Translations under genes and position numbers: made by a program | Assembly (NCBI RefSeq): GCF_018977255.1 | Contig: NW_024704772.1 | Location: 930,001-994,000, forward strand | Length of the DNA: 64,000 nt | Reading direction: 5' to 3' | DNA from: Callorhinchus milii | Lineage: Eukaryota | The notes under the pieces: generated by a model | The model's input: the letters and a program-made list of their open reading frames with translations, nothing else | What the model was told of the DNA's origin: nothing | Database searches by the model: none | Shown here: positions 101 to 64,000 of the stretch, piece by piece | Layout of the letters: the number at the start of each line of letters is the position of its first letter | Numbering within the stretch: the stretch's first letter is position 1

Positions 101-12282
<12,182 letters not shown>

Positions 12283-12720: not shown

Positions 12721-15719
12721 CGGGGGGATAGGGGGGGCCATGGGGGCAGGGGCGGAGGTGAAAGATACCATCCCGTGCAACTACTCCACTCTAAACTTTT
12801 TTTTAACCCCTTAAGAATAAGTCGCTTTTTACATTGCTGCAGAGATTCCTAGCGTGTGTTCGCAGTACACAGGGGGTCTGTTTAGACCATGTCTGTGCTG
12901 GTGTTCCCTCCACACACACCCACACACACACCACACACACACACACACACACAGAGGAGCTCTCCACTCTAATCCCATTTCCTCGCTCTTTCCTCCTATC
13001 ATGTCTGTGCTGGTGCAGGCTCCCCCTCACACTGGAGCTCTCTAATCCCAAATGTGGTCAAATCCACGAGAGAGGAGAGAATAGAGACGTACGTGAGGGG
13101 GAATGAGGATGGCACAAGATTTATGTGGAGCAAACACAGGTACTGACAAACACAGGAAGATAGGAACAGGAGTCGGCCAAACCTGTTCTGCCAATCTACG
13201 AGATCATGGCTGATCATATAGAATAGCGGAAGAGCGTGTTACCACTCTGTACAGTCTACATAATTCTATATGAATTATGCTGCCGTGTGAATTTCAATTT
13301 TTGCAAAGGTTCAGTTCCAGATTTTACTGTACCGCCACAATTTCCTGTTAGTTAATACTCACAGAATGTCAATGTACATCATCAAAGGGAAGGGAAGCAA
13401 CTCTGCAGTTCAGAGTTTCAATCCCCCCCACCACACTCGTCTTTACTCCCCCCACACCACACCCCCCCACTCTTCTGCTCACTCCATCCGCTCCACTCCA
13501 TACACACACCGCACACACCTATCTTATCAATAATAATAAAGAATTATTATCTCCGGAAAATGATCCGCCAATTGACTAACAACCGGGTTCTTTCTTACTG
13601 CTAGGTAAACAGAGGCATATGGCGTAAGGAACCTTGCCTAAGATTTCGGCCTGCCCGGGAATCGAACCCAGGTCCTCTCGTTTATGAGGCGACTGCTACA
13701 GAACTCCATGAAAATGGTTAGACAGCATTTGAGAAATCAAGACTTGAGATGACACAAGGGTTTGGGCTGGTGATTTAGAGTGAATTGGAGCATTGGTCCT
13801 GAGATCCACAGGATCAGTTTGGGTGAAGAAAACCCTTTGGCCCATCTGATCTCATCACTCCAGAACACCCGACCCAACCCGTCACCCCATCACAGCTCCT
13901 TTTCAAACGAGTCCCAGCTTCCTCGCCTCAAACAATTCTTCCTGATCACCCCAATTCCTATTCCATATAAGCCTCCGGGCAAACAATATTTCCTGGTGTC
14001 TGCCCTGAAATTGCTCTTTGCAAACCCATGCCCTGTTTCTCTGCTGTTCAGCAGATCTGAAAGTAAAAGACGGCAGGCAGGCTTGTTCAGATACAGAATG
14101 CTCGGTTGGGTGTCGTGGTTGAGGCAAGTTCTGTATCGGTTTGTCATCTCAGACACAAAATGCAGTGAGTTGCACAGAATGTTACAGCACAGAAGCAGGC
14201 CTTTCAGTCCAACCAGCCCCCGACAGTCTTTATCTTCTGCACAAGCTTCCTCTCCACCTCTCTTCCCTTCCTTCTCGGGTAAACATCAACTTTCCTCTTA
14301 AATATGCTGACACTTTCTGATTCAACCACAGTTTCCTTTCAGCGAGTTCCACATTCCTAACACTCTCTGCTTAATGAGGTTCCCACCAAACTCCATTTTT
14401 GATGTTGCACACAGCATGAAGTGAATGAAGGGTTTATCTGGAGGGATTGTCAGCTGAGACACTCGGAGAGAAAAACTCCCTTCTCTCTTCAAAAAGTGGG
14501 ATCAATATCTGTCTCAAAAGGCGCAGACAGGCCCTTGGTTTAACGTCTCATCTTAAGGACGGCATCGCCGACAATGCAAAGCTCCCTCTGCACCACAGTG
14601 AACTGCCAACCTAGACCGATGGGTCTCAAGCAAAGTTTTCGAGTGACCTCAGTGTGCAACCACCAACACTTGCTCCACACACACTGTTCCTCCACCCCAC
14701 GCAGAGGGGGGGCGATTGTGGCTGCACAATGGCCCATAGTGGCCGCATTTGAGAAACGCTGGCCTAGACTGACTCAAGAGGCGAGACTGAGCCAGGCTGA
14801 TACATTTACGGCCTCTCACTTTTGGTCTCACCAACTCATGGAAACATTTCATCAAAGCGCACCTTATCAAATCAAATCCTTCCATAATCTTAAAACACCT
14901 CTATTTGGTCTCCTCTTCATCTAATCACCAGAGATTAAACCTCTAGCCTGTAATCTGTCCAATTCTTCTTGATAGCGGTGCGTACTTGTAACATACCTCG
15001 TAAAATCGATGCTCATCTCCCTCCCTCCGATACCCTTCCTGTAACCAGAACTGCACACAGTCCTCGTGTACTTAACACCCTAAAAAAAGAGAGTAATATG
15101 TAAGTGGGGCTGAAGAGATTTCAGGAGACACCACAGTCACCATACAACAACTTGCATTTACACAGCGCCCATCTAAGCGGGTTAGTCCAGAGGGAGTCAG
15201 GCACGGTGGAACGAATGGACAACACGGCGCCTTTCGCGTCAGGAGGACGTCTCGAAGCGCTTCACAGGCTCGACCGCCAAGTGTAGTGACTGACCTGCCG
15301 CACTTGTCAATTTCCCACAGAAAAACCACCAGAGCTTTTCGAAAAGACCAACGGGGAACGGTGGGGGGAAAAGAAAGAGAGGGCAGATGGGACAGGAACG
15401 GGACAGATTTGACTGGGCGGAGCTCTTTCCGAGAGGGACGGTGGGGCCTAATGGCCTCTTCAAGACCATTTCTGCCCATTTCTGTGGGTGTCAACAACAA
15501 CAACAACCATTGCTGTCGGCCATGGATTTGGACTCGGGTCACACCGTTGGACCGTGAGCCTCGGAGGGAGTCCGACCACCCTCGCCTCCTCGGGGGATGG
15601 AGGGGAGTGAAGGGGGAAGATGCTCTGGTCACCGTGTGGCCCCTTCATTGGTGTCCATCTGGTCAACGCCAACCTGGACAGTCAGTCCAGTCAGGCCATC
15701 GAACTGTCAACTGAACACC

Positions 15720-16500
15720 TCAGCCCTCGAAGCTGATTGGTGGAGTGAGCTGTCAATCCTGCGTAACACCCGGATATCCTGCAGCTGATTGGCCAAAAAT
15801 CTGTGTCCCGCCTCCTCCCCCCTCCAACGGTCGCTGAGCCCCCGCCCCCCCCACCCGCCCCCAAAGGCGCGTCTCGTGCGGCGACCGTTAATCAAGCGGA
15901 AGCTGGTAGGACAGAGAGGCTGTCAATCAAAGGGAGACGCGCGATCAGATTGGCTACGATCGAGCTAAGTCCCGCCTCCCACCACGATCATGCAGCGAAG
16001 GGTGGGCAAGGCGGGGTGTGTGGGTGGAGGCGTTTGATTGACAGCCCCGTCAAGGGCGGAGTCCCACCCCCGCCTCGCCATTGATCGGCGAGGCTGTCCG
16101 TCAAGTGGGACCGCGACGCGGATTGGTCATCGAGTCGGCGTTAGTCCCGCCTTCGGCGGCGGTGCGCGCTGACGTAAGGACGCACGGGGGGGTGGGGAAG
16201 TGGGTGGGGCGAGAGCGAGCGGTTTGATTGACAGTCGAGGCCTGCCGGGCGAGCGGGAAGGTAAGGCGGTGAGTGGGTCAACGGTTGTCGAACGGTAAAC
16301 GGTTCATTCAGCGAGGAAACCGCCAAACCGGGCCGGGCCCCGCCGTTTCCGTCACGTTCGGCGCCGCGGAGACGCGCAGGGGAGCGACGGTCGCTCTCCT
16401 TCCGCCTCACCCCCTCGCCCGCCCCCGGGAAGGCCTCAGGCCTCGGGCTTTCCTGCGAGCTCAGGCCGGAGTCGGCGAGGGGGGAAGGGAAGGGAGCGGG
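15720..16500 (+). promoter_or_regulatory. CpG-island promoter and non-coding exon 1 of the epsin gene
   Basis: CpG-rich. ATTGG (NF-Y) at 15736, 15788, 15949 and 16122. PBX/PREP decamer TGATTGACAG (either orientation) at 15920, 16035 and 16225. GC boxes present. Strong donor AAG|gtaagg at 16260/16261. Confidence 0.75.
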
Positions 16501-17214
16501 GTGGCAATTCGAGGCCCTCTCCCCTCAGGGGATCGATGGGCGGACTTGACTTGCCCCGTGCGGCCTTGTCACGTCCAAGTGGCCGCCGATGTCACCGATG
16601 TGACTGCCTTTAAATCCCCACCCACCCCAACAGGAAACAGCAGCCACCCCTTCGGTGCAGGGACCCCCCCCCCTCCCTCCCTCCCTCCCCCGAACCATCT
16701 CAAGGACAAGCCCTCGGAGAGAGGCACTTTGAGGCAGAAACCTTATCGCGTCTTTGAGGCGGCGCAGAGCGCTTCGAGGGCGTCGCGCGTCGACCGTGTG
16801 GGACCGTATCTCGTGGGCGGAACGCAACAGCCGATGACGCACAGCGACGGACCCCCCCCCCCCCCCCACGTGTAGGGTCGTGGATCGAGTTGTCCCATAA
16901 TTATTATTGTTCTTATTAGGACTTTTTGTTTAAGGGGTTGTCTTCGATCGGCGCGGCCTCCAGAAGCGGTTGCTCCCCGAGGAATCCGCCGCCCTGTTTT
17001 CGTGGTGTTTTTGCCCGGTGTTTGGATCCCTCCTCCCTCCCTCCCAACTGTGCTTTTCCATTTCTGCGTTTGGCCGATTTTAAGGAGAGCGATAAATAAT
17101 TGCAGCGCCTCAGTCCCCCGCTCAGGTGTGCGCTTTGCCTCGGTTAAACGCTCCCGGGTGAAGGGCGCTCTGTAAACCCGAGTGATTGTCTTTTCGATGT
17201 GATGGTAAGGCTTG

Positions 17215-19494: not shown

Positions 19495-22400
19495 ATGACG
19501 TCCTCATCGCTTCGGCGACAGATGAAAAACATTGTGAACAATTACTCGGAGGCCGAGATCAAAGTGCGGGAGGCCACCTCCAATGATCCCTGGGGGCCCT
19601 CCAGCTCACTGATGGCCGAGATCTCGGACCTGACATACAACGTGGTGGCATTCTCCGAGATCATGAGCATGATCTGGAAGCGGCTGAACGACCACGGCAA
19701 GAACTGGCGACACGTGTACAAAGCCCTGATGCTCATGGACTACCTGATCAAGACGGGTTCGGAACGCGTGGCCCAACAGTGCAAGGAGAACATCTTTGCC
19801 ATCCAGACACTCAAGGACTTTCAGTACATCGACAGGGACGGAAGGGATCAGGGTAAGAACGTAAGAATTTGCTAGGTGAAGGAAGAACTAAGGTCCATCT
19901 AGTTCACCTTCCACCATCCTGGCTGTCGCTTGACATCGTTGTATCCCAAACTACATACTGTAACCCGAGATATTGTGGAGTCCTGTAGCAGAGTGGTTAG
20001 AGCACTCGCCTCCAAGCGAGAGGACCTGGGTTCGATTCCCGGGCAGGACCAGGTGAAATATTGGCCAAGTTTCCTTACTCCATGCACACACACCCCTGTT
20101 TACCTAACAGCAGGTAGGAGCCGGTTGTTAATCGATTGGCAGATCGCTTTTCTGTGGAGAATAATCTTTCCCTTTACAGTCGATTCACTTTACAATGTAT
20201 TCTGTGAAGCACTTTGAGACATCTTGAAGACTTGATAAGGCGCTATATCAAATGCAAGGATTATTATTATTTGAAAAAGTGTAGTGACTGTGTTTCTGTA
20301 TTCAAACGCGGCAGTTAATTTGGTGCAGAACAAGATACCATATCTGATTTATTGAGATTGCTGTTAACCAGGAGACTGGGGCAAAGCTCTCTTCTCTCTG
20401 TTTTTAATCGCATTGTGAGATCTTTAACATCCTCTCCAGATGGGAGCTCAGATTTTAAAGTCTGATCTGAAGGATAGTTTCTCTGACAGTGCAGCACTCT
20501 CCCAGTATTGCACTGGACTGTGAGCTCAGTGATCCTGACTTAGGGCTGGAACCCACCAAGTTATAGTTCTGAGGGAGGGAGGGGTGCCAATTCAGCCAGG
20601 CTTGACACCTACTTAGTTTTTGATCTACAAATATCTCTTTAAGAGCGTGAAAACATTTAGCAGGTCTCAAAGGTGTCCATGCCTGAAAAAATCCCCGCAG
20701 TTTCTGGTGAAGAGGAAAAAAAAGTACACAAGTTTTGATTATCGACCGATAAAGATTGGGGCTATTCTCAACGGCTGGAAAGTCCTAATTGCTGGAGTTC
20801 AGAGCCCTACAGACGGGCATAGAGAATGTGGGTGAGGGGATACGGGTTGAAGAAAAGATTGAGGCCATCATGATCAAATTTTTTGCTGAGCGCTTGTGGC
20901 TGGGCTCACACAGAGTGACCACTTGGGACGAGGTGCCACGTTTTAATCGGACTTCGGTGCTTTGAGGAGCAACCAAAACAATAAAAAAAAATTCGACTAC
21001 CATCTTTAGATTGTTAGAACTTTTTCAGATCAGAAGAGTTGTCGATTGGACCCATGATTTCCTACTGTTAAAAGATTTTAAAAAAGGGTGTGCTTAACAC
21101 CGTTCAGTTCTAATTAAACCCGTTCTGTCGTGCACTTCGAGACGTTTCTTCACAAGAGACGCGGTGTCAATTTTAACTTGCTGTAGAGAGAATCGTGGAT
21201 GCCTGTGGTGGGTGTGGTTGCTTACAAAGTTCTGGTCTGATCAGTTAGAGGAAGACGCGTCAGAAATAAATGGTGTCGTATTAGCAGCCCGACTTTTAAG
21301 AGCCTGAGATTTTAAGACTGAGGGCAAATAAAAGTGTTCTCACAATATTAATAATCCTGGCATTTGATACAGCGCCTTATCACGTCTTCGAGACGTCTCA
21401 AAGCGCTTCACAGAATATACTGTAAAGTGAATTGACTGTACTTTGTGGGCGAAAGGTGGCAGCCGATTGCGCACAGCAGTGTCCCACAATCAGTCGTGGA
21501 TTGAGTGACCAAATTATCATTATTTTGGAACGGATTATCACGCGTGAAAAAGCAATCCGCCAGTCGAATAACCACCGGGTTCCTACTTGTTAGATAAACA
21601 GAGGCGTGTGTATGGAGTAAGGAAACTTGCCCAACATTTCATCCCGCCCGGGAATCGAACCCGGATCCTCTCGCTTACAAGGCGAGTGTGCTAAATGCTG
21701 AGCTACTCCACTCTTGCTGGTGATTGGGAGGTACAAGTATCAGGTCAGCAATGGTGGTGAGGCCAGTGACCACAGCGGTCACCGATCATCTGCATAAGCT
21801 TTGTTTTGGTGTTGGCGACTCACACCAATGCTTCAGAATCTTTATAAAAAGAAATTACGAGCTGTGTGAGTGAAACTGTGCTGAGATCTAGCAGCCCTGT
21901 CTTGTTGGTCTGTCTGAACACACCGCATCATCCATATCAGGAAATGTCTGACTAGCTACTGAGTCTCGCCCAAAGAACCAGTGCGGGGAGGAGGGGAGAG
22001 GAAGGGAGACTACCAAAACATATTTCGTAGAATTTCACAGCACAGAAGGAGGCCTCTCAGCCTTTGCGCCTCTCTGTGAAAGAGCTCTCCATTCACTTCC
22101 ACTTCTTTGCTCTCCTCCCACCCCCACCGCACACACACGCACACACTCCCCCTCCCCCTCCCCCGCCCCACACACGCAGATGCACCCCTTTGTATTTTTC
22201 TTTTTAAAATATTAGTCCAATTCCCTTTTAAAAATCTGTTACGGATTCTGTTTCAGACTCCGTTTTTGGTTTCCTCGGTATTCTGTGTCCTAATAACTAT
22301 CCTTTGTATGAATAAAAATGACACTTCCTTTTATTTCGGTGACTATCTTACATTTATGCCCTGAAATGACTGACTCACCACTCACGGGAACTAGCTTCTT

Positions 22401-25400
22401 CCTGTTGAAGGGGGCGGGGAAATCAACCAACAACAACTTGCATTTATATAGACAGATGGTGCCTGTCGGGCAGGTTAGCATCTCGTAGCGCCACGATGGA
22501 TCCTACAGCTGATTATTATCGGATGTGGAGTGTGGGAACATTGGATGAGTTTTGACTGTTAAGTGCTGGGTTATCGGGAAGTTTACTTGAGTTCGAGAGA
22601 GACATTTGCAGCGAAAGCAGGCAGAGAGAGAGAGAGAGAGAGAGAGAGGTGTGTGATCTCAAGGCCGTGGTGGTTGGTACATGAAGCTACCTGTTTAACC
22701 TGGCTGGGTTGTCCTGTGGTCGATCTTGCCGCACATCCCTGTCTGTCGGTGAGTTGATTTTCCTCGGAATTCTTGTTGAGGTGCGGTGCCTCTCTTCCCC
22801 AGGATTAGCTTCGCCTTGTTTTATTGTCAGCCGCCTCAGACACGCAAGTGACAGCTTCTCGGTGGCAGAAAACAACAATTTAGTTTCTGTTGTGTCAGCG
22901 GTTTTCACAGTCTCTATTGAAGGCTGAAGCCCTCTTTATCTCGAGGTTCTGTGGCCTACATCTCCAGGTCTATAGTTGACCACGTCCTTTGTCGAGTGAC
23001 CGCGGTCACAGTAAACCAATGGTGTGACGGGGCAGCTTTATTGTGTCTCTGAGATGTCTCAAAATACACCGTCAAGTTAGTTAACTGTATGTTTTGTGGG
23101 CGAAACGCGGCGACCAATTGCGCACAGCAGCGTCCCCACAAAGAGTCGTGGATCATAACCAAATTATTTTTACTTGGCTGCCGGGGGCCGGGCGCCTATC
23201 AGATGCGTGCATTATTATTTATTATTATTATTGTTCTTTCTTCCCTGAGCAGGCATCAACGTGAGGGAGAAGTCCAAGCAGCTGATCGCCCTGCTGAAAG
23301 ATGACGAGAGGTTGCGTGTGGAGCGCAGCCACGCGCTCAAGACGAAGGAGCGGATGTCCAGCGTGACCACAGCGGTCGGCAGCAACAACCAGATCATGTT
23401 TGGCCGGGGTTCCAGCCACCCCAACCTGTCCACCAGCCAGTCAGACGAGTGCGGCAAAGTGGGCGGCTCGCCGGCCTCCTACCACGGCTGTAAGTGCGCC
23501 CGGGACGTTTTCGAACGCGTTGATTTTTAAAATCCCTTCACTCCCTGGCATCTCCCTACCCGTCCCGACCCGCTTACTCGCAACCCACAATCCGTTCGGC
23601 TGGCTCTGGCCTCCTGCACGTTCCTCGTGCCCTCCGTTCCACCATTGGGTGGGGGGGGGGCTATGCTTTTAGCCACTACGCCCTGCAACTCTGGATCACT
23701 TTTCCTCTATCCCTCTGCCTTGCCCCTTCCTTCCCCATCTTCAGGCTGCATCTGAAGACCTTCCTCTTCGCCGGCCACCTCCCCTCCCCCCGGCCTCTTG
23801 CGGTGCTGTAACGGCCTGATTCTGGGGAGATGAAGACGCTAGATGTGGCGAGGATTGTGTTGCTCTGATTATGATTACCGCACTGTTTCCCTCTCGCCAG
23901 CGACTTCCCCGAAGATCTCCTCGGAGCTGGAGCAGACGAGGCCGCAGACGAGCGGGGAGGAGGAGCTGCAGCTACAGTTGGCGCTAGCCATGAGCCGCGA
24001 GGAGGCCGATCAGGTGCCCGCCCGAGGAGGGGGCAATATCGAGGGCTTGCCCAGGGAGCTGGTGGGTTTGTCTGCCTCCCCGTCCACATTCCCTGTCCCT
24101 GTCCCATCAGGACGCGGTGCATGTTTGAGAAGAGAGAAAATAGACGCAAAATAATAATAATACTAATAATCCTTAGATTTGATACAGCGCCTTATCATGT
24201 TGTTGATGTGTCTCAAAGCGCTTCACAGAATACATTGTAAAGTGGAGTGACTTGTGTTTTGTGGGTGAAACTTGGCAGCCAATTGCACACAGCAGTATCC
24301 CACAAACAGTCGTCGATTGAGTGACCTAATTATTATTTTGTTAAGGGATTTTTTTACCCCCAGGAAGCAATCCCTCAATCAATTAACAACCAACCTACTG
24401 CTGGGTAAACAGAGGTGTGTGTGTGGAGTAAGGAAACTTGCCCAACGTCTCGCCTGTCCCGGCCGGGTATCGAACCTGAGTCCTCTCGCTTGCGAGGCGA
24501 GTGTTCTAACCACTACTCTACGGGGCTCCACGTAACTGACCGGGTGTCACGTCAGTCAGTGGGACGCTGCCCGCTTTCGGGGAAACTGTTCTGTCCCTCG
24601 TATCCTATCAGAAACTTCTCCTCAAGTTGGTTAAGGCCAACGACGACTCTTTGTGGATCAGTGCTTCGTATTACACTTCACTTAACGGCTCGGCCTCTTT
24701 ACGACGTGGCCACACAAAGCGTTTGACCCCAGAATGGTGGCTGCCCAGTGTAACCAGAGCGCACACACTCGCTCTCTCTCTCGCTTTCCCCCACACAGAT
24801 TTTCAAAGGTGCCCCCACTACCAGCCAGCAGAGGAGTGTCGCGTTGACACTGGGTGTGCAGGTAAGGCTGACCATTACCTGGATTGAGAGAGTAAACTCC
24901 GCGCTCACAGGACAGAGGCGGATGACTGACGGGCTTTCCAACCTCTCCGCAACTGAGCCCGGAAGAAAGATTGATCACGCTTGTTTTTTTTTCTGGGTTC
25001 AAGACCCACGTCCGGACGTGAGCTCACAGTCTACGCTACCTCAATCCCTCCCTCCGCCTTTCCCTCTCCTTTGCCCATCTCTCACCTGAAGACCAACCCA
25101 CTGACAGTCACCCGCTTCCCCGAACCCCCCCCCCCGCCCGCCCCCCCACACACCCTGCTCGGTGTTGTACTACACCACTATTAAGCGCTCTGAGATGCGT
25201 GTATGTGAAGGGCACTGAGTTGCAGTGTCTGTCAAGGGAGGGAGGGGAAAGTGTGGGAGGGGTGGTGGGGAAAGGAGAGAGGACCGATGTTTTACGCCAT
25301 ATGTTGCTATGCGCAGGGGGACAGGCGACGCCGGGGAGATGACTTACGGCTGCAGCTGGCGATGGAGGAAAGCCGACAAAAACTACAGATATCCACAGCC

Positions 25401-26475
25401 GAGCCTCAGGGAGCGGAGGTAAAGCCGGGAACTGGCCTCACAGGGAATGTGATCGCTCAATCCATGGCTGTGTGTTGTGGGTCACTGCTGTGCGCAATTG
25501 GCTGCCGCAGAACATACAGTCAATCCACTTTGTAGACTCTCCTGTGAAGCGCTTTGAGACGTCGCGGCGACGCGATCCAGCGCTGTATCAAATGCAGGGA
25601 TTATTGTTATTTTGTGCGTCACTATGGCGAGATCCATCACAGTGCACTGTCTGCTCCTTTCCACAGCCTTCTCTGCTGGACCTGACGGACTCCTCGCCGT
25701 CTGCCCTGACACAGAAAGCCGACCCCTGGGGAACGCCCTTCCCATCAGCAGCAGCAGCTCCGGCCGCCAAGCCTGACCCCTGGGCTGCCGTGTCCGGTCC
25801 GGCCCCCACCTCCGACCCTTGGAAGCAAATGGGTAAATCGTCCCGGCGTAGTGCAGGGTGTTGGGTGGTTCCCAGCGACTCAGTCAGTTGACGTGTAGCA
25901 GACGTGGCTTGGGTGGTTAGAGCACTCGCCTCGCAAGCGAGAGGACCTGGGTTCGATTCCCGGACAGACAAGTTTCCTTATTCCACATACTCGCATGCCT
26001 CTGCTTACCTAGTAGTAAGTAAGGAACCGGACAGTTAGTTGATTGGCGAATCACTTTGCGGGGGTAATAAGTCCTCCCCCCCCCCCCAAAAAAAAAAATT
26101 GGTCACTCAATGGCTGCCGTGTTTCACCCACAAAATATAGTCACTCTGAGGCGTTGGCCTACACGAAGGAGTGAGTTATTGTTGTCGTGTTTGTCCCAAG
26201 TCACAAGCCTTGTTCTCCCGCCCTCTCGCAGCAGGCTCCAGGCTGGCCGCCGCCTCTGACCCATGGGGAGCCGAACCCCAACAGAAGACCACCGACCCCT
26301 GGGCCTCGGTGACACCAGCCCCCAGTAGAGATCCCTGGGCCCCGGCCTCTCCCACCTCAGGTACTGTTTCTCGTTGAAGTGGAGTCCTGTAGCTCAGTGG
26401 TTAGAGCACTCGTCTCGCAAGCAAGAGGAACCGGGTTCGATTCCCAAAAAGTTAGACAAGTTCCTTTACTCCATA

Positions 26476-26512
<37 letters not shown>

Positions 26513-28446
26513 CTGTTTACCTCGCGGTGTGCAGGAACCTGGTTGTTGATTGGCAGATCACTTTCCGGGGGTAATAAAAAAAATTCACTCAATCCACGTC
26601 TGTTTGTGGGGGACGCCGCTGTGCGCAACTGTCGGCCGCGTTTCGCCCACAAAACACACAGTCACTCCACTTTACCAGGTATCCCGCGAGGCGCTTTGCG
26701 AGATGTCTCAAAGACGTGATAGGGCGCTTTATCAAATGCAAGGGTTGTTATTGTGCTGTGCTTGAGGGGTGTTGAAGGGAGCTGGGGACCAATCTCTCTC
26801 TCTCTCTCTCCCTTCCTCTTCACAGTGGCCTCTCCTTTCCAATTGTTCAGCGCGACGGACACCACGGTGACAGATGACTTCTCAGCGTTCAGCGCTTTGA
26901 GAGGCTCCCCGAAGAAGCCGGAGGGTCAGGGAGCAGGTGAGTTTTGACTCTTAACAAGTCCTGGTTCGGCCAGAGCTCCGCGCTTGCCGAGGGGAAGTTT
27001 ATCCCTGAAGGTCTCAACAACAACAACAACAATAAATGACATTTCCACGGTGCCTCTCACGTCAGGAGAACGTCCCGAGGCGATGGGACAGTCAGGGATT
27101 TGGATCCAAACTGGGGATTGGGATGAGGAGGTTTTCAGGCAGTGGGGGGGGGTTGGTTAGGAGGGTGATCAGATGGCGCGGTTGACGAAGAGGCAAGGCG
27201 CAGGGCAGGGAAAGCGAGGGCAGGAGGGTGACCGATGGCGTTAGGGTTAGGTAAGAGGCTGATTGTTTACTGTGACTCTGGACTCCGCAGGTGGCAGATT
27301 TGAGGCGTTATCCGATGGGCTGACCACTCCGCCCGGCCGCACTGCCAGCCCCGACATGTTTGACATGTCCCGCATGTCCAGCAGCGTGGAGCCCACCCCT
27401 AAACACCAGCCGGCCTTGGCCGCACACAAAAACCCCGAAGCTTTCCTCGGGCCCAACGCCTCGCTCGTCAACCTGGACACCCTGGTCACCCGCACCCCAC
27501 AGCCCAACCTCAACACTAACCCCTTCCTCGCACAGGGTGAGCGGAACGTTTGGTGTTCGGGGGGGAGATGGGGTGTGGGTTAGCAGCCGGTGGTGGTGGC
27601 GGCGAGGGGGAAACGGGGAGGGGGCAAAGGGGTGCGAGGGTGGGCGGAAGGAGAGAGGGAAGGAGAGGGAGGGAGGGAAGGGGGTGGCGGGAGGGAATGG
27701 GAGAGAGGGTGAGGTTTGGGAAGGAGAGTCGGTTTGCTTTATCGGTTCGTGCCGTTCTCTTGTGATTCCCACGGCCAAAGCCCGAAGACCTGTCCACTTC
27801 CTCCTGCCCGAGGGTTAGCTCGTCTGTATTTGTTACAGCAATAATCTTTATATAGTGCCAAGCTCAGTGGGTTTGCATCTCTCTCACTTTCTCTCTTTTT
27901 TTCCCCCTCTCTCTCTCCCCCCCCCCAACCCCCTTCCTCTTCTATCCCCCTCTCCCTCTCGCCCTCTCTCTCCCCCTCCGCTCCTAACCGTACTCCCTCT
28001 TCCCCCCCCATCCCTCTCGCCCTCTCTCCCCACCATCTCTCTCCCCCTCCTCTCCCTCCCCCTCCTCTCCCTCCCTCGCTCCCTGTTCCCCCCCCCCACC
28101 CCCTCTCTCCCTCTCCCCCCCCTCTCTCTCTCTCTCTCCCGCAGGTGTGTCGGCCGCCACAGCCAACCCGTTCCACAGCTCGCAGCCCGCGGTACCCGCC
28201 TGTGGTGGGCCCGTGTCCCAGACCCCGTTCGGGCCGGTGGCTCCGGTCAGTGCCAGCCCCGCCCCCTTTGCGGGGGTGCCGGGGGGCGGGGGCCCGATGA
28301 TGGTGGGCGGGGCCCAGGTGGTGGGTGGGCCGGTGATGCCAATGCCGCTGAGCTCTGCCATGACAGGCCCCGCCTATGTGGCCATGGTGACCCCACCCCC
28401 TCCCACAGGACCGCCTCCCAGGTCCACCAATCCCTTTTTATTATGA
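19495..28446 (+). CDS. Full-length epsin (EPN2-like sequence, in the ENTHD1 syntenic position), ~586 aa
   Basis: Coding exons: 19495-19852 (ENTH, MTSSSLRRQMKNIVNNYSEAEIKVREATSNDPWGP), 23253-23489, 23901-24013 (UIM EEELQLQLALAMS), 25317-25418 (UIM DDLRLQLAMEES), 25667-25832 (clathrin box LLDLT, 3 DPW), 26235-26360 (3 DPW; NAGNAG alternative start 26232), 26826-26936, 27291-27536 (LVNLD, NPF), 28145-28446 (2 NPF, ends TNPFLL*). Phases are consistent, 1761 nt in total. Confidence 0.93.
19976..20270 (+). mobile_element. SINE family B copy
   Basis: GGAGTCCTGTAGCAGAGTGGTTAGAGCACTCGCC head and (ATT)n tail. Confidence 0.85.
20270..20608 (-). mobile_element. SINE family A copy, tail-to-tail with a family B copy
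   Basis: Antisense head and body. Confidence 0.7.
21345..21711 (-). mobile_element. SINE family B, full-length copy
   Basis: Reverse complement of the head, core and tail, about 365 bp. Confidence 0.88.
24150..24530 (-). mobile_element. SINE family B, full-length copy
   Basis: Reverse complement of the head, core and tail. Confidence 0.85.
26380..26752 (+). mobile_element. SINE family B copy with internal (CA)n
   Basis: GGAGTCCTGTAGCTCAGTGGTTAGAGC head and the shared tail. Confidence 0.85.
27880..28140. repeat. CT-rich polypyrimidine low-complexity tract
   Basis: About 260 nt of almost pure C/T directly upstream of the last epsin exon. Confidence 0.9.
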
Positions 28447-33050: not shown

Positions 33051-34405
33051 GAAGTGCTGCCGGTGTCTGGGCTCAGCCACGTTCCTGAAGGAACACAAGG
33101 CTTTCAGAGGTAACAGAGTCAGGTAGTTCCCGGCAAAGAAGGGGAATTTAAAACAGGGCAAACCGGGCTGGTCAGCTGTTTAGAAAATAATTAAATAGAT
33201 GACTACACTTCTGGGAACACTGCAGCTAAACCTTCGTTACAGCTCTCACTAACATTTGCTGTAGATATCAAACCTGTTTTGTTCTTTTTAAAAAAAAAAC
33301 ACAAGTTTAAAACCACTTTGGCTGCATTAACTGTACCCACAGAAAATTAAAGTATTGTGAATCTGTCACAAGCTTCGAGTGTGTGTTCTCTTCACACCAG
33401 CAGTAACGGACAGCCCTGCGACCACCATGTATGGGTTGTAGTTTTTTTTTGGGGGGTTGGGGGGGGGGGGAAATTGGGGGCGACAGAGAGAATCTCGGAG
33501 TGAAATGTCTTTCTTCCCTTCACCCACCGATGACAGGATGGATTCAGTGAGAAACAATTTTCACTCTTCTCAACCCACCTCCGTTGGGTGTTGTGGCTCC
33601 TTTTTGCTTTGGAAGTGAAGTTTGAATTGCATAAACATTCTCCGCACGGACTCATTTCCTGCCCTCCCCCCAAAGAATGGAATTCTAAAAGCCAAACAGC
33701 GCTCTGTGACACCGAGCTCTGCGATATTCGCTGGTTAGACTCCAGCAATTACCCCAACGCACACTCTGGGGTTCACCCCCCCCCCCCCCCAGCCTCGGCT
33801 CTCGTCAACCTGCACCTAATACTCGGGAATTAGGTAAGGATGAATGCATTTCTCCGAGGAGAGGAGAGAGAGAGAGAGAGAGCGTATTCCATTCCAACAA
33901 TCTCGTCCCCGGGGTTTGCACGTGTGGGTGGGATCCATGGAATTCTCAGCTTGGTTTGGAGGCTCTTAAGCAACGGCGATGTGGGTTTCCGCGCGTGTGT
34001 CAGACACCCGGTCGACCCCACCCAAAAAAAACTTGTCGCGTTTCAACTTATTAAATTACTTGTGGGTTAAAAAGCAAGAAACTTAAAAAAAAAAACATTG
34101 AAATAACTTGCATTTATCAGTGCCAATTAAAAATCAGGATCACATTGTTACAGTCTTTTTATATATATATTTTTAAAAAAAAACACAGATGCACAAAATG
34201 CAAACAGGCACCTTTAACAGTCACAAAATGTATTATCGGGTGATAAAGTTTTAAAACGTATTTCCTCCCCCCCCCCCCCCCCACTTCAAAAAAAAAAGTT
34301 CTTCTTTGATAAAAATAATGTCCACATGACTTCCTGATCTTGGACACTTCCATCATTGTTTCCTGTGATGTGGTTCGCTTCGCTGCGGGCACTCAACCGT
34401 GTATC

Positions 34406-45413
<11,008 letters not shown>

Positions 45414-48806: not shown

Positions 48807-51800
48807 ATGAGCTGTGTTCCCTGGAAAGGAGACAAGTTGAAATTGGAGTCTGATTTTCAGCCTCCCCTTCTGATATACCACGAGAAGCAGAGGAGAGAGC
48901 TGTGTGCACTTCACGCCCTCAACAACGTGTTCCAGGATGGGAGAGCGTTCACCCGGGAGACCTTGCAGGAGATTTTCCAAAGGTAAAGTACCTGACTTGA
49001 GAGAAATATAGTGCAGGTTGCATTTTGTCAGCTTGGTTCAGTTGGTAGCGCTCTCGCCTCTGGGTCAGAAGGTTGCGGGTCAAAGCTCCACTTTGGGTCT
49101 TGAGGCCATAGTCCAGGCTGACGCTCCAACACGGTACCAGGTAGAGCACTGAATTTTCGAAGACGCCGTCCTTCAAATGAGGCCCAAGCGACTTGTTCAG
49201 CCGGTCGCTAAGCATCTCATGGCGCAATTTCCCAAAGTGTCCCGGCCAACTATCCTGCAGATAAAATTGGCCATTCGCTTCATGGGCTGTTTGTGGGATG
49301 TTGTGGTGTGCAAATTGGCTGCCGCGGCTCCTGACAAATACACAGACACTTTGCCTTGCAGTAAATCCCGTGAAGCGCTTTGAGACGCAAGGCATTGTTT
49401 CGTATGCAAGCATTATTATGGCCGTTTGTGGGACTTCGCTGTGCACAAAATGGCTGGCTTGTTTGCCTACAAAGAACTGTCACTACACTAGACTGTAATT
49501 ACCTATGAAGCTCTTTGGGATCTTTTGACGTTTTAGCCATTGTATGAAATGTCCGTTCATGTTTTTCTAAATTATAGGTAGAACTTAAGTTAACCATTTT
49601 GGTTAGTACAGGGGATTTTTTCACCAAATCCTTTTATTAGTGTAAAAGCCGCCCAAGCTTCTGTTTTTATCAAAATCAATGTTAGGAGAATGGGAGTCCT
49701 GGAAAACTATATATGTCTGTGTTAGCTTGAGGTACATTAATATTTCAGCGTGATTTTTTTAATTATTTAGATATGTTTACATCTCGTGTGTGTGAATAAT
49801 TTGTGGGGCTTTTGTCTGCGGAAACCAGCAGTGTTTTGATTCAACCATTGCATGCACGAATATCCAGTGAGTGACATTGGCGCTGAATTCACCCGGTGTC
49901 CACCCGCAAACACAACCCTCCAGCAGGAATAGTGGGAAGGCTCAATGTTGTGTGTCCACGCGCCACTGATGTTGCCTCTTACCTGAATGAAAATGTTTAG
50001 CTTACACAGTCACTACATTTGACAGCAGTTGTCTATGAAGTGTTATGAGACGCTCAGGAGCTATATGAAATGGAAGGATTGTCATAAATGAACAGATCAA
50101 AACAAATCCTGCATATGTACGTATGGTTTCCATTTGCCCGCTATGGAGTACGTGCGCACACACACACACACTCTTTCTCTCTCTCTCTCCAATTGCCGTG
50201 ACATTAAACATTTGTGCAACTGACAGTTTTTTTTTTTCCCCCCACCCCCACCTCCCCGGCCTTCTCTATTTCAATTGCTTTTCTCTTTCTTGCCCACGTG
50301 AGCTCCCGCAACGTGTTAGAACGCTGAGCTCGTATCACAAGTGGAGCTTGGCAAACAGAGCGATGCAGTGGTGTGGTTCCACCTTTTCTCAGTTCCTGTC
50401 GCTCCCACAAAGTTGCCTAATCGCTGAGCTGTTCTGGAACACCCTGCCTTGTTGATTAGGTCATTGCAACAACAACAACTTGCAGGGTAATGTCCTAGAG
50501 TGCTTGACAGTGGCGGAGCACGCACAGCGCCACTCGCTAACCCCCACCCTACAGGACTTGTGAATATATTGAATGAGCTGTATCAGACCCGCCCGGCCTG
50601 AGCTGTCTCCAGCATGTGGTGAGCCAGTGCTGTCTGTCTTCATCGCTCGCTTCTCTGCCATTGGCTGGCGGGCCTTCAGCCTCTCTGCACCCACCCTCTG
50701 GAACTCCATCCCACAGTCCCTCCGCCTCGCCCTGTCCCTTGTCTCCTTCAAGGCCCATCTCAAGACCCTCCTCTTCGACTGGGCCTTCGGTCAGCCTCCT
50801 ACCTCTATCCTCCCCTCCTGATCCCAACCCCCAGCTTGGCTGCGGATCCCTGACTGTCCAGCGCTTTGGGACGTCCTCCTGACGTGTAAATGTAACTTCT
50901 TGTTGTTGCTGCTGCCCAGGCTGTCCCCGAACACTATGGTCACCCCGCACAAGAAGAGCATGCTGGGAACGGGCAACTACGATGTCAACGTGATCATGGC
51001 CGCGCTGCAGACGAAGGGCTACGAAGCCGTTTGGTGGGACAAGCGAAGGTAATCACGTGGCCTTCAACCATCTCCCCCCCCCCCCCCCCCCCGCCACCCC
51101 CCGTTACTACCTCCACCTCCCGTTGGCTTGACTCGGTCACTCTTCACCTCCGGGTGATGATCGGGGTTGAGGTACAGAGATTGTTGGTTCAAGCACTCCC
51201 CCCCTCAATAGTAATAATAATCCTTGCAATTGACACAGCGCCTTATCACGTCTTCGAGACGTCTCAAAGCGCTTCACAGGACACACTGTAAAGTGAATTA
51301 ACTGACTATTTTGTGGTCCCAGCACATTGAGCACACTGTTCAGGCTCTCTCTCCCTGTGGAAGAAATGGAGGTGGGGGTGGTGGGGGGGCCTCTGCTTGT
51401 TCAAAAATGTCCTTTGGGCGAGACGTTAAACCCCAGAAATGTATGACTTGTTTGGCCCATTATTTTGTGTTGGAGTTTGTTCCTCCAAGACGTCTTTCCT
51501 AATCCCTGCTCTTTCCCACCCCCACTTTCCCCCCCACCCCCCAATACCTGTCCTTGACTTGTGCTTGTCCAATTCTTTTTTAAATGCCTCTCCCCACAAT
51601 CATCTGTGCTCTAACCGCTGGCAAAACAGCCCATTCTAACCGCCCTCTGGGAATACAAGTTCTTCCAAACCTCTCCTTTTTACTCCCCTACTCCCAATTC
51701 AAGCCTGTTCATCCTCAAACCGAGGGAAAAGGGATCAGAGATATCAAACACAATTGGTTGCCACGTTACGCCCACAAAATGTATCGTCAATTCACTTTAC

Positions 51801-54130
51801 AGTCTATTCTGTGGTTTGAGATATCACAAAGGCGCTGTATCAAATGCAAGGATTATTTTTAAACCAAGTGTTATGTGGAATTCTGTGTTCCCTGAGCTCC
51901 CTCCCTCCCTCTCGCTCCATATTACCAGCTGACTCAGCCACTGTTTCCTGAGTTCATCTCAACACAGTGTGAGCCAAAGCTATGATGAGTCAACTGTAAA
52001 AGTAATTACCGTGTGTGGGTGGGTGAGAAAAGGTAGGACTGTCGAGCGCTCGCTGGCACGTCAGGGGTTAAAACAGCTTGGTTTTTTTTTAAACGTTAAA
52101 AAAAATTGAGTCCGGATTAATTCCCTCTTATTATCTCTCTCCCGGTTGGGCTTATTAAAAAGCTTAATTTGCAGGGAATGCAAAATGCTCAATGGGAATT
52201 GGTTTGGAAAAGGCCACTGAGCTCGACTGTGCGAGGCAGTCACGCAAATGTCAGTTTGTAGTCATTAACCCGAGGGACGTGGCTGCTTGTTCGGTTTTGC
52301 TTGCACGGTCCGGCTCATTGCTGCTTTGTAGACAGCTCCCCCGTCCCCACCTGACATTGCATTGCTCATCATTTGCATAAAGGGAACTAAAGCCCACAGA
52401 ATTCCTCGTGGTCTCAGGCTGCGAGGCCGTTCTTGCCTCCGGGATATTTAGGACGACGCACAATGGTGGAAAAATCTTCAATCGGCTCTCGATTCGGAAG
52501 GAAGCCAGTATTATATAATGGCTGCTGCGTTACCCTACAAATACAGTTGTTACAGTAATTACCGTGAGGATATTTTGAGATAAGGTACTAATGCAATGTT
52601 CAAAAATTCACCAACAAAATGATAGTCAATTCACTTTACATTTTATTCTGTGAAGCGCTTTGCGACGTCTCGAAGACTTGATAAGGCGCTATATCAAATG
52701 CAAGGATTATTATTGTAAGACTATATGTGCTTAGTTTACATTTCTGTTCTCCTGCAGAGATTTCACTGTGCAAACCCCTCCCCTCTCCCACCCGCGAGCA
52801 ATGGAAGCAAAGATTCTTTCAAAATGATTTCATTTCCAGCAAAATTTCAATTCCTCCCCTTTACAGCTGTGATGTGCCCTGACAGCCGATGCTAATGCCC
52901 ATTATTTCTGGCTCTTTGAATCCCCCTCCCCCACCCCCCATTAATCAGAGAGCCACAAGAGATGCCACAGTCACAGCAGGGCACATCTGTACTGTAGAAG
53001 ATGTAGGCAAGTGTAATCTGCCTCGACATCTGTGTCTGTGTGTGTTGTATACATTGGGTTAGTGACTGTGTGTGCGGACGCTGCTGTGCGCAATTGGCTG
53101 CCGCTTTTCGCCCACAATATATATAGGCAACTCTCTTTACCGTATATTCTGTGAAGCGCTTTGAGACGTCTCGAAGACGTGATAAGGCTCTGTATCAAAT
53201 GCCAGGATTATTATAATAGTGCAGTCGATGGTATAACCTCCCTTGCACCTTTGGGAAGCTGAGATATTATATTATATTGTTGACTGCTGTGTCCTAATCC
53301 CTGTTGTTCCTGTTGCAGAGACGTTAACACTATTGCTCTTTCGAATGTGATGGGTTTCATTATGAACATCCCGTCCAGCCTGTGTTGGGGTCCGGTGAAA
53401 CTCCCCCTCAAGCGGCAGCACTGGATCTGCGTGCGGGAAGTGGGAGGTATCTACTACAACTTGGACTCCAAGCTGAAAGTGCCGGAGCAGATCGGGAGCA
53501 AGGACGAGCTCAGGTTAATTGACTGGGGGGGTGGGTGGAGTGGGAATTAAAGGGGAAGTGAGAAAAAAATACATCATCCTTAACACAGAGAGTGGTGGGA
53601 ATCTCAGCCATTATTAACAATAACAATGATCCTTGCCTTTGAAATAGAGTCTTATCGCATCTTCACGCGTCTCAAAACACTTCACAGAATATACTAACAT
53701 ATGTGTTAATATATTAACCAGAATCAAAGCAAAAATTGTTTACAAATGTAAAGATTGATGTTTGAAGGTGAGGAATATTAAAGGGTAAGGGGGAGCGAAT
53801 GGGACGAGATTTGATGCTTTATTGTGAGTGGTGGAATTAAAGGGTAGGTGAGAGATAAAAATACACCATCCTTTACACAGAGTGTGGTGGGAAACTGGTG
53901 CTCTTAGCCATTAACCAGAGTCAAAGCAAAATCTGTGATTTTACTGTGGGGGTGGAATTCAAGGGGAAGTGAGACAAACAAGATTTTAAAGCTGATCATT
54001 TTGTTTTCCTCTCTCTCTCTCTCTCTGCAGAAAGTTTCTGAAACACCAGTTAAGGGGGAAGAACTGTGAACTCCTATTAGTGGTAACTGAGGAGGTTGAG
54101 GTGCAACAGAGCTGGAGAACAGGTGGCTGA
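48807..54130 (+). CDS. JOSD1: Josephin-1 deubiquitinase, 199 aa
   Basis: Exons: 48807-48982 ([31 protein letters not shown], catalytic Cys), 50920-51048 ([12 protein letters not shown]), 53319-53513 ([15 protein letters not shown], catalytic His/Asp), 54031-54130 (NCELLLVV..*). Total 600 nt. The N-terminal [10 protein letters not shown] is JOSD1-type. Confidence 0.95.
49027..49418 (+). mobile_element. SINE family A, full-length copy
   Basis: GTCAGCTTGGTTCAGTTGGTAGCGCTCTCGCCTCTGGGTCAGAAGG head and the shared tail. Confidence 0.8.
50640..50912 (+). mobile_element. L2 LINE 3' fragment abutting the second JOSD1 coding exon
   Basis: [34 protein letters not shown] plus tail. Confidence 0.8.
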
Positions 54131-57059
54131 CATTACTAAGCTCTGTCTAGCTCTGAACCTGACAGACAGACACACAGAGGGACAGGACACCCTCACAATC
54201 TCCTGATTCCAGAAGACTCTCTTTATTATAGTGCGCTAGTCTTTTTTTTTACTACGTCTGGATCTCTCTTCAATGGCCTGGATGACTTAACAGAGGATTC
54301 TACAAGAAGGGCTGGTTTCACAATCTGGAAAAGGAAGGAAGAAAGAAAAAAAAAATGATCAGCGTGTGTAAATATTACTTGTTCGTGGCGAGAGGGACAT
54401 AAGCCGCATGGAGTTGTTTGTCGATTGCCGATTGGGAATGAAAGGTGTAGGATAAGTACTTGACAAAGATTTACACCCAGAAATACTTATTTGTGTTGGG
54501 GTGGGTGGGAGAGAAAAGAGAGAATGTGGGTCTCTTTTTTTATATACATATATATATATCAAAAAACAAGCAATGTCAGAAATGTTGAGGTGAGCACATG
54601 AGAGTGAGAGAGAGAGAGGGGCCAGAACCAAAGTTAATCCAATACTTTGAACACAGTGACGCACAACTTCGCAAAAGATTCTAATGAAACGTTTTGCTCT
54701 GGGATTGGGAGCTGTCCAGTCTCTTTATGTTTCCCGCCCTCTCATTTTCTTTCTCTCTCTCTCTCTCCCCCCACCCCCCCCCAAGCCCATCGCTCCCTCC
54801 CCTCCTTGTTCTTTCTCTTGTTTCTAACCCTCACTACCACACAACCCCCAATTCAGCAATGGCTCGTAAACACTTACCCAAGATTTACACTCACCATAAC
54901 ACTATGGAGAGGGAAGGGAGGGCTGGGTGGGTGAGTTGGTGTGTCAAGTACAGTTGTTCCTACCCAGCAGTGGCACTGCTTCGGATTGAGTATTTGGCTA
55001 CCTGCTTTTCCTCCTTCCCCCCCCCCCCCCCCCCAGTTGCCAGGTACTAATGTTTCCAAAGCTGTTGCCAATCTGGTTGCAATGAAATTCAGAGGGGGGT
55101 AAGTTGGAAATTGCAGATATTGGCTCCAAAGTACATTGGGAGTGTGGTTTCCCCTCCTAATCTGGTTGGTATTACTCCCTTTTGGTTTCCTCTTTAACTG
55201 TCCGTTAGAAAGCACCACATGTTAAACTGTAATGTTTAGCGGTGGGGGTGTTATATAAAAGGTCTGCTCCTGTTGAGCGGGTGAGATGTTCAGAGTTTGT
55301 CGCTGAAGTCTATCGGGATTTACGTTTGATAGGTTAAAGTTTGTTAACGTTGCTGGTTCCTTCACTCTTGTTCAGTTTGGGGAATGTGTGCGTGTGTGTA
55401 TGTGTGGGGTGGGGTTGGGAAATCAAATAGCTGAGTACTTGATCACCAGCTCAAAAGATGCTCTGTGCGGTGGTGGGTTTGGGCTACAGCCAATGGGGTT
55501 TCCCCAATGTAAAGCCCTTGTTTGATACTTGACATGAGATGCTTCGAAATTCACTAACTGTATCACCAACGATTGTGCCTTCAATGTACACCCTCTTCCC
55601 CGTTCCACCTGTGTTTATTTTGAAACGTTAAACTGTTGTGTTTTGAGAAAGCCTCCATATTGTGTGTGTGTGTGTGTGTGTGTTTCCCTCTCTCTCTGTG
55701 TCCGAAGAGCCCTTTCTTATTCATCAACAACGATTAATAAAGGCATGGTCTGACCGTGAGCATGTTCTGGCCCTTTGGCTGCTGTTGCTGTCTCGAGCAG
55801 TTTGGACACTTTATGAGCGATCAGGTTGTTTGCTGGGGAGAAAATTCCACAGATCCCACATTTTGGAAGTGGGGAACTGGAGAAGACACGTGACGAGGGG
55901 ATTCTAAACACATTTCCGAATGACAAAATATTTCCGCTGTCAGTCGCTGTTTCCATCTCTCTCTATCTCTTCCCCCTCGCTTTATCTCTCTCGCTTTGTC
56001 TTACATGAGGATCTATAGTTGTAGAAACCCAGCACGAAAACATTTCAGTGAGTCACCGAGTCTTGTGAAATACCTTGGCACTCTTCAAAACTGACCTTTT
56101 TATGCTAACCTTTCTGTGTGTGTGTGTCTCTGTCTCTCTCTCTCTCTCTCAAAACCAGGAAAAAGCCATGTAATATACTATTGTGCAATGTTTTATTTGT
56201 TGGGTCCTTTTTGATCGACTTATTTCGGGAAGGTTTTAGGGCCAGGTGGAGGGAGGGCGGTTAGAGGTCCTGAGTGGGAGCAGTTAATGTACACTGAGAT
56301 AATTGCGCGAGAGAGCAAAAGTAGGGGAGAGAATTGAGTGGAGAATGTCACACACACACCTTTAATTAATCGAAGTTGAGGAGTGGTTGGGAGACTCAAC
56401 TAGTGGCTATGTTATCGTGTGTATACGCGCACACTTGAGAAAGAAAATGGAAACCGTATCACTTCATTCTACGCGGTGCCCAAAAAGTCCTGTGTGCCAC
56501 CATGTTTTGTTTTCTACGGTGCACTGACCCAAACACTGAAACTGGAAGAATGTTGATGATAATTGTATTTAGAAGTTACTTTATTGTATTCAGTACAAGT
56601 GTTTAACTGTATTTAGACGTCTAGAAGATCGGGGGGTGTGTGCGTGCGTGTGTGTGAGAGCCCCATCATTTTCGTGGGAGATAATGATCTGTCGCCATGA
56701 TATCTTCTGTCACGTGGACGGACGGAGTGAGAGACGAGGAAGGTTCTGGTATCAGACATTGTTCCACTCAATTCGCCTGGAAAAATTCATCGTCAGAAAA
56801 AAACCCCGGGGCGGTGTGGGGTGGGGTTGGTAGCAGGTCTTCGGGAACACCCCCTGTACTCAATCCAGAGCTGGGTTCGATCCAAGATAAGGTCAAACAG
56901 ACACGTTGATATCTCAGTATTGTACGTCGCACTTTGCTCTTTTCTTTCCCAGTCCCCTCTGCGTAAGGTGTGGACGGTGACAGTTAATGTTGAACACTAT
57001 ATGTTTGGGTGATAATTGTGAGGATTTTTTTTTAAAAAATTGATGTTCAGGGCCACAGA

Positions 57060-63725: not shown

Positions 63726-64000
63726 GTAAGTACAGTCGGCCCAAATCTCAACCGTTTTCCCCCTCTCCCAACCTCCGCTGTTTGCCAATGTGTCTCTGTG
63801 TCTGTCTGTCTGTGTCTGTGTGTGTATGTGTTTGTGTCTCTCTTTCTCTGTGTCTGTCTGTCTCTTAGTTTCACCGACCCACTGTCTCAGATGTACCGCC
63901 AGACCCCCAGCTCGGGTGCAAATCCCTGACTGTCCAGCACCTTGGGACGTCCTCCCGATGTGAAAGGCGCCGTGTAAATGTAACCTGTTGTTGTTGTTGG

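Follow-up and report, generated by a model that had tools for sequence, protein, structure and literature searches.

A complete epsin beside a GRAP2-like gene in Callorhinchus milii and the likely origin of ENTHD1

Epsins 1–3 (EPN1, EPN2 and EPN3) are endocytic adaptors, and mouse knock-outs of 'all three epsins' have been described (Messa 2014, PMC4161027). Another vertebrate protein with an ENTH domain, ENTHD1 (ENTD1), has been placed apart from epsins 1–3 in a separate vertebrate subfamily of unknown function, ENTHC (De Craene et al. 2012, PMC3473312). That study reports ENTHD1-type proteins from most vertebrates, birds being the exception, and names no cartilaginous fish in the part of its taxon list examined. 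The function of ENTHD1 is described as largely unknown, and one paper calls the protein an epsin-family member in passing (PMC12923970). Here we analyse an epsin gene in a 64,000-nucleotide (nt) stretch of Callorhinchus milii DNA (contig NW_024704772.1, positions 930,001 to 994,000; the window, whose first base is position 1 of all window coordinates below), which an earlier note, made from the letters alone, had singled out as a candidate fourth epsin. We find that the gene represents a fourth, EPN2-sister epsin of cartilaginous fishes, a conclusion that is well supported, and that it is likely to be the orthologue of human ENTHD1.

The chromosomal setting of epsins is laid out in Table S1 of Lamb 2021 (PMC8040251), which covers seven bony vertebrates. 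In its paralogon 4, GRAP2/GRAP/GRB2 and CACNA1I/H/G occupy quadrants A/B/C and the epsins EPN2, EPN3 and EPN1 occupy quadrants B, C and D, which leaves quadrant A without an epsin; ENTHD1 is absent from the part of the supplement examined. In all seven species columns EPN2 lies 12–198 kb from GRAP, in five of them it falls between GRAP and CACNA1H, and EPN3 is at most 124 kb from CACNA1G in five of the seven. Because the quadrants branch as ((A,B),(C,D)), an epsin of quadrant A is expected to be the sister of EPN2, which is the relationship we find. The earlier note's proposal that these blocks are paralogons left by whole-genome duplication agrees with that table.

Structure and predicted product of the window epsin

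The open frame runs on the plus strand from the ATG at 19495 to the TGA at 28446, and when its exons are joined by coordinate all nine introns are GT–AG and in frame. The earlier note had given the gene nine exons and 586 residues; its frame and splice sites proved real, but one exon was missing from it, a 63-nt in-frame exon at 24799–24861 between the two UIM exons. Because this exon occurs in 23 of 23 orthologous records, the predicted product is likely to be a protein of 607/608 amino acids (aa) from ten coding exons. In the nine-exon version the length is 586 or 587 aa, according to the site used at a NAGNAG acceptor (26235/26232).

19495–19852, plus strand: exon 1, helix 0 and the greater part of the ENTH domain; followed, after codon 119, by a phase-1 intron
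23253–23489, plus strand: exon 2, end of the ENTH domain and linker; phase-1 donor placed as in EPN2
23901–24013, plus strand: exon 3, first UIM-type motif
24799–24861, plus strand: exon 4, 63 nt, between the UIM exons
25317–25418, plus strand: exon 5, second UIM-type motif
25667–25832, plus strand: exon 6, clathrin box LLDLT and three DPW motifs
26232–26360, plus strand: exon 7, three DPW motifs; NAGNAG acceptor with alternative start 26235
26826–26936, plus strand: exon 8, DDF-containing segment
27291–27536, plus strand: exon 9, second clathrin box LVNLD and first NPF motif
28145–28446, plus strand: exon 10, two NPF motifs, C-terminal NPFLL and stop

Exon 1 is 100% identical to the C. milii record XP_007908008.1, in which 511 of 520 aligned residues are identical overall. 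The gene is already annotated, under the generic name 'epsin-2-like' that the earlier note had predicted. Identity over exon 1 is 99–100% to the best-matching records of sharks, rays and chimaeras and 97–100% across all 23, and the complete window model is 79–82% identical to two elasmobranch orthologues; these identities exclude chance as an explanation of the gene model.

The translated model carries exactly the motifs that had been reported for it (an ENTH domain, two UIMs, LLDLT, LVNLD, six DPW and three NPF). In the nine-exon numbering, UIM-type motifs that align with the UIMs of EPN2 lie at residues 219 and 244, LLDLT at 273 and LVNLD at 463/464, together with six DPW motifs in the tail and three NPF motifs, the last of them at the C terminus. 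Among the 15 elasmobranch orthologues tabulated, 14 carry six DPW-type motifs and 13 carry three NPF motifs. The ENTH domain matches PF01417 at 185 bits in the C. milii record P0003 and is closer to that of epsin 1 than to that of epsinR (298 bits to 1h0a versus 160 to 1xgw, with the orthologue P0011 as query). All of the residues that we take to bind phosphoinositides (R7, R8, K11, R25, N30, R63, K69, R72, H73 and K76) are present in the window epsin, as they are in the EPN1-type protein P0231.

Judged from its translation, the locus encodes a complete classical endocytic epsin. If its motifs act as established epsin biology indicates (Messa 2014, PMC4161027), helix 0 and the ENTH domain would bind phosphatidylinositol 4,5-bisphosphate (PI(4,5)P2) and bend the plasma membrane, and the UIMs would grip ubiquitinated cargo. 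The DPW motifs would recruit AP-2, the clathrin boxes clathrin, and the NPF motifs the EH domains of Eps15 and intersectin. The protein would then be an ordinary adaptor at clathrin-coated pits alongside EPN1–3, and we expect the biochemistry of the shark protein to be ordinary.

An epsin clade of cartilaginous fishes beside EPN2

We searched with residues 140–420 of the Heptranchias orthologue, scoring 8,000 candidates and taking the best 120 of 3,429 matches. Within these, 23 records from 16 cartilaginous fishes score 366–607 bits; the scores then fall to 220 bits or less, nearly all of these records being named epsin-2, and no tail-bearing member of the clade comes from a bony vertebrate. 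Eleven of the 16 species, among them C. milii, have a separate EPN2 as well as the clade gene. The two genes lie on contigs of differing size in all 10 species that could be compared and therefore are not tandem copies. The clade gene is 64% identical to the EPN2 of C. milii, the epsin-2 record P0034, which falls within the EPN2 clade, so that the window protein is not simply this genome's EPN2.

Three trees place the window protein outside EPN2, as the earlier note had supposed. Shark EPN2 joins bony-vertebrate EPN2, to the exclusion of the clade gene, with supports of 96 (a quick tree), 100/100 and 99/96. In a 45-row tree the clade and the EPN2 of sharks and bony vertebrates each receive 100/100 and their union 98/87, with hagfish, EPN1-type and EPN3-type rows outside it; a 29-row tree that includes named EPN1 and EPN3 unites the clade with EPN2 at 94/86. 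This branching puts the split between the clade gene and EPN2 before the divergence of sharks from bony vertebrates. The hagfish epsin P0211 (one sequence) lies outside the clade–EPN2 pair, joined at 88/80 and 87/78. The post-ENTH linker, at first sight specific to EPN2, is not diagnostic; it is also found in a shark EPN3 and a hagfish epsin.

Synteny, sequence and the case for ENTHD1

In the human genome, intron 2 of ENTHD1 lies at chr22:39.874 Mb (PMC11805910), which together with the coordinates of Lamb 2021 puts the gene between CACNA1I (39.571) and GRAP2 (39.901). A variant row implies that it is on the minus strand (PMC4747093), one HindIII fragment is common to the ENTHD1 and GRAP2 promoters (bioRxiv 10.1101/2020.12.15.422932), and the two genes appear together in mouse and cattle candidate-gene lists (PMC3585141, PMC8694269). 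Human ENTHD1 fills the expected epsin slot and is oriented as in the window, head-to-head with GRAP2.

The neighbours of the window epsin are as follows.

101–12282, minus strand: GRAP2-like gene, six coding exons, including a 194-codon Pro/Gln-rich linker exon
15500–17000, no strand: CpG-rich island between the divergent genes, GC 0.61–0.70, CpG observed/expected 0.74–1.09
34400–45413 (ends approximate), minus strand: GTPBP1-like gene, tail-to-tail with the epsin
48808–54132, plus strand: Josephin-domain gene, JOSD1 by exclusion
63682–63726, plus strand: chromodomain exon of a CBX gene, 15 codons

The divergent partner, named as GRAP2 in the earlier note, is a six-exon minus-strand gene that starts at ATG 12282, head-to-head with the epsin, has GT–AG introns throughout and encodes an SH3–SH2–linker–SH3 protein of 402/405 aa. 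Its SH2 exon has its best match in GRAP2/Gads (80.9 bits versus 70.5 for GRB2, GRAP being outside the comparison), and its C-terminal SH3 domain fails to separate GRAP2 from GRB2 (66.7 versus 66.8 bits). A long Pro/Gln linker is a GRAP2 trait, and by the SH2 match and this linker the epsin's neighbours are the quadrant-A paralogues. The other names proposed for the surroundings fared unevenly. GTPBP1 stands, with a minus-strand GTPase exon matching at 242.7 bits; JOSD1 fits by exclusion only, the Josephin exon being about half identical to JOSD2, its sole match in the PDB; and the CBX7 label for the chromodomain exon, presumed from a motif, is unconfirmed.

Our sample of ENTHD1-type proteins consists of two unnamed records, P0382 and P0383, from a search limited to long proteins. 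P0382 matches the Atlas cluster 'ENTH domain-containing protein 1' with a score of 0.97 (237 of 256 features), and its residue 196 is Asn, the residue replaced in the human variant p.N196T; a first Atlas search had returned only generic ENTH clusters, below 0.9. Both proteins retain every lipid-binding residue that we assumed above and are 65–71% identical to the window epsin over ENTH residues 7–152, and their tails are without DPW, UIM or LVNL motifs, with one NPF each. In a tree of the ENTH domain (147 columns) the pair joins the cartilaginous-fish clade at 75/89, and the clade, or part of it, is its sister in 747 of 1,000 bootstrap trees. Adding rows of lamprey-type, teleost epn1b and fast amphibian-type proteins leaves the join in place, at 67/78 under a mixture model and 67/77 in a further tree. 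Three residues, S44, M81 and I131, are common to all 23 clade members and both ENTHD1-type proteins; no two of them are present together in any of the 449 other proteins scored (of 453).

The window epsin is therefore likely to be orthologous to human ENTHD1, as the earlier note had proposed, on a basis that is mainly synteny; the three ENTH trees and the three residues lean the same way and are not sufficient alone. Several observations weigh against this assignment or the steps leading to it. The join between the clade and ENTHD1 is unstarred, at 67–75% bootstrap, and the approximately unbiased (AU) test spares trees in which ENTHD1 goes with EPN2 (p 0.24), EPN3 (p 0.36), EPN1 (p 0.22) or cyclostome epsins (p 0.40). 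S44, M81 and I131 were picked post hoc from the alignment, and each turns up on its own in other proteins (S44 in all 72 teleost epn1b-type records, M81 in 19 of the 24 EPN1); V10, F48, K91 and E137 are common to the ENTHD1-type proteins and many EPN3 records, with all four in 11 other proteins. Against epsin tail profiles, neither ENTHD1-type tail rises above its shuffles (with the profile of the clade, 153 and 41 of the 200 shuffles score as high). Ray-finned fishes, coelacanth, lungfish and amphibians yielded no intermediate form, and ENTHD1 is represented by the two sequences only. The local order also differs from the human CACNA1I–ENTHD1–GRAP2, with GTPBP1 rather than a calcium channel following the epsin. 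As for the clade itself, the AU test rejects neither a chondrichthyan EPN2 duplicate (p 0.086) nor a sister relation to EPN3 (p 0.084), and no named chondrichthyan EPN1 was retrieved, so that a set of four epsins in a single shark genome is presumptive. The Pfam UIM model, finally, gives no match on P0003 or P0011, nor on the EPN2 record P0034.

Other leads add nothing to this case. UIM-like remnants seen in an alignment of the ENTHD1 tails were dropped after failing shuffle controls. Among 147 further ENTH representatives, down to 232 bits, none was ENTHD1-type (they were grouped by similarity, and most are without names). The coding-exon ends of human ENTHD1, which we take to be of phases 1, 1 and 0 at matching codons and to include the intron position absent from EPN2, are not counted, as no source for them was found. 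ENTHD1 exon boundaries did not appear in the literature searched, which included 13 of the 29 files of PMC6131170.

We put the probability of the following history at about 0.82: the second genome duplication produced EPN2 and the window gene, both of which stayed whole in cartilaginous fishes, and the second of them became ENTHD1 in the human line. An ancestral block of GRB2-family, epsin and T-type calcium channel genes would have been quadrupled, its second duplication giving rise to GRAP–EPN2–CACNA1H and to GRAP2–(window epsin)–CACNA1I. Cartilaginous fishes would have retained EPN2 and the second epsin entire. On the line to humans the ENTH domain and its lipid-binding residues would have been kept and the tail altered beyond recognition. 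The earlier note had the tail decaying in mammals: the full tail is indeed present in the window epsin, but 'in mammals' is too specific, as no tail-bearing bony-vertebrate member appears among the listed matches. A duplicate retained in cartilaginous fishes and lost or changed in bony vertebrates is a familiar pattern.

A bolder picture, which we offer as a tentative possibility, is that human ENTHD1 is a fourth classical epsin reduced to a stand-alone membrane module, having shed its ubiquitin, AP-2, clathrin and most EH sites, which could compete with epsins 1–3 for PI(4,5)P2 and Hip1R without a link to the coat. The shark gene would then preserve the ancestral state, and tail loss would have been a repeated event.

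Of the alternatives, the one that survives best supposes two tandem epsins at the GRAP2 slot and reciprocal loss, the complete gene being kept in cartilaginous fishes and the other in bony vertebrates, so that ENTHD1 is a close paralogue of the window gene and not its orthologue. It fits the synteny equally well, and it would sit easily with the missing intermediates, with ENTHD1 tails that have no significant homology to epsin tails, and with the existence outside jawed vertebrates of ENTH genes whose tails are without UIMs (lamprey P0353 and a relative, P0355). However, it calls for one more duplication and for two reciprocal losses, the window contains no second ENTH-coding stretch (1,183 of its bases are N), and just 3 and 41 of 1,000 bootstrap trees place the lamprey-type pair beside ENTHD1 as its sister; we regard this history as improbable.

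Still harder to accept is a history in which the quadrant-A epsin was lost in bony vertebrates and ENTHD1 is a later, EPN3-derived copy in the same place. The four residues common to ENTHD1-type and many EPN3 proteins speak for it, as does the AU value for ENTHD1 with EPN3, and 97 of 1,000 bootstrap trees (top rows) and 177 of 1,000 (LG+G4) make EPN3 rows the sister of ENTHD1. However, the eight sister sets listed as commonest under the mixture model do not include EPN3 alone, and the copy would have had to insert into the exact vacated slot in the same head-to-head orientation, which makes this history very improbable.

An EPN2 duplicate that arose within cartilaginous fishes, unconnected to the two rounds of vertebrate genome duplication (2R) or to ENTHD1, would account for the RefSeq name epsin-2-like, for EPN2 as the closest paralogue and for complete members that, among the listed matches, are all chondrichthyan, and it passes the AU test. 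But shark EPN2 groups with bony-vertebrate EPN2 without the clade in all three trees, the constrained tree is 17.8 log units worse, and the neighbours are quadrant-A paralogues; we consider a chondrichthyan-only duplicate largely refuted and give it hardly any weight. That the full tail is a gene-model artefact or part of a pseudogene, as might be imagined from the older C. milii record P0003, which ends differently after the first NPF, is a negligible prospect given nine in-frame GT–AG introns, a last exon that matches shark orthologues and an NPFLL C terminus in 20 of 23 orthologous records.

Related ENTH proteins and comparison with known systems

Several further features of the window and of related loci were recorded. 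The NAGNAG acceptor (window 26229–26235) makes a one-residue difference, and its two forms occur in 13 and 7 of the 23 orthologous records. The start of the first intron of the epsin (19853–19866), read in frame, resembles the start of the next exon (23253–23266) in 4 of 5 residues, and a tblastn match extends into the intron; the likeness may be chance or the trace of an intron gained by tandem duplication. By eye, the introns (for example 19977–20270, 21450–21720 and 25895–26170) hold many short interspersed repeats with tRNA-like heads. The CpG island may contain a non-coding first exon of the epsin, with a donor at 16261 and a candidate acceptor before 19294. Between 28446 and 34400, GTPBP1 comes directly after the epsin and by eye there is no T-type calcium channel gene, no homology search for the channel having been made. 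The linker exon of the GRAP2-like gene (1051–1632, minus strand) contains a tandem repeat of 30 nt (5.6 copies, 92% matches) and a repeat of 48 nt, which encode about ten PMQR-type units. In human, a THE1B retroviral long terminal repeat (LTR; chr22:39873892–39874245) supplies the first exon of an ENTHD1 transcript whose level is raised in sarcoid macrophages (PMC11805910); if ENTHD1 intron 2 is the intron inside the ENTH domain, the LTR-started transcript would be without most of the domain.

Other ENTH proteins have also departed from the epsin plan. The sea lamprey 'epsin-2-like' protein P0353 (830 aa) and a relative, P0355 (645 aa), have an ENTH domain, neither UIM nor NPF motifs and at most two DPW-type motifs; they fall outside the ENTHD1 group, which suggests an independent loss of the tail. 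Teleost epn1b-type proteins (P0394, P0402 and about 70 similar records) have a fast-evolving ENTH domain and a rebuilt, repeat-rich tail; they group with EPN1, and their S44 matches that of the clade by convergence. Together the lamprey-type and epn1b proteins suggest that tails were lost independently more than once. Neither is supported as ENTHD1 itself, epn1b joining an EPN1-type row at 96/89 and 97/91. P0381 (Hemiscyllium) and P0362 (Atractosteus) are named epsin-2-like/EPN2 and are EPN3-type in the tree, as is P0384 (Labeo, 'Epsin-2') by eye, so that such epsin-2 labels are unreliable. The tamarin hypothetical protein P0024 contains three tandem copies of an EPN3-like ENTH-end/UIM segment and is perhaps a duplicated pseudogene or a mis-assembly. 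A metagenome scan (79 loci) returned one vertebrate EPN2 locus and invertebrate-type epsins and no ENTHD1, and prokaryote and viral scans gave no matches. Codons 105–135 lie in one aligned piece in all 79 metagenome loci, a count shaped by selection for long matches and by many transcripts and not used for dating the codon-119 intron.

No paper that a full-text search brought up ties ENTHD1 to a shark epsin or to 2R ohnology; part of this link may already stand in subscription journals, ohnologue databases or Ensembl gene trees, which lay outside that search, or in parts of the supplements of Lamb 2021, PMC8455134 and PMC6131170. No epsin term occurs in the 12 of 24 supplement files searched for the whale shark paper. 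If the proposed history is right, the origin of ENTHD1 is explained and the epsins of paralogon 4 form a quartet in place of a trio. A living ancestral form would be available for comparing what was kept (the lipid-binding residues) with what was lost (UIMs, DPW motifs and clathrin boxes), and a fourth ENTH paralogue would still have been in place in the mouse knock-outs of 'all three epsins'. The annotation also calls for correction, as the name 'epsin-2-like' at present covers the window clade, a shark EPN3 and a lamprey protein.

Among known systems the closest is EPN2 of jawed vertebrates, the sister clade, with which the window epsin shares the ENTH domain, the linker, two UIMs, clathrin boxes, 5–6 DPW-type motifs, three NPF motifs, the NPFLL end and an intron at codon 198/199. 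We take EPN2, like the window epsin, to lie head-to-head with a GRB2-family adaptor gene. The two differ in the codon-119 intron, which EPN2 does not have (the genomic reading frames of L001, P0025–P0030 and P0035 are unbroken to residue 198), and in their neighbours, GRAP for EPN2 and the GRAP2-like gene for the window epsin, whose complete form is found, among the listed matches, in cartilaginous fishes only. The epsin trio of Lamb 2021 (PMC8040251) belongs to the same paralogon, with the A–B sister relation that is predicted for the window gene. EpsinR/CLINT1 ('Epsin 4' in PDB 1xgw) has an ENTH domain too and, by the scores given above, is far more distant than epsin 1; the name 'epsin 4' is already in use for an unrelated Golgi/endosome subfamily. 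With ENTHD1 the window epsin shares its genomic slot head-to-head with GRAP2, S44, M81 and I131, and the presumed PI(4,5)P2-binding residues. It differs from ENTHD1-type proteins, which are without UIM, DPW and LVNL motifs, and from the ENTHC subfamily as defined, an ENTH domain without an endocytic tail, in having the full tail of UIMs, DPW motifs and clathrin boxes.

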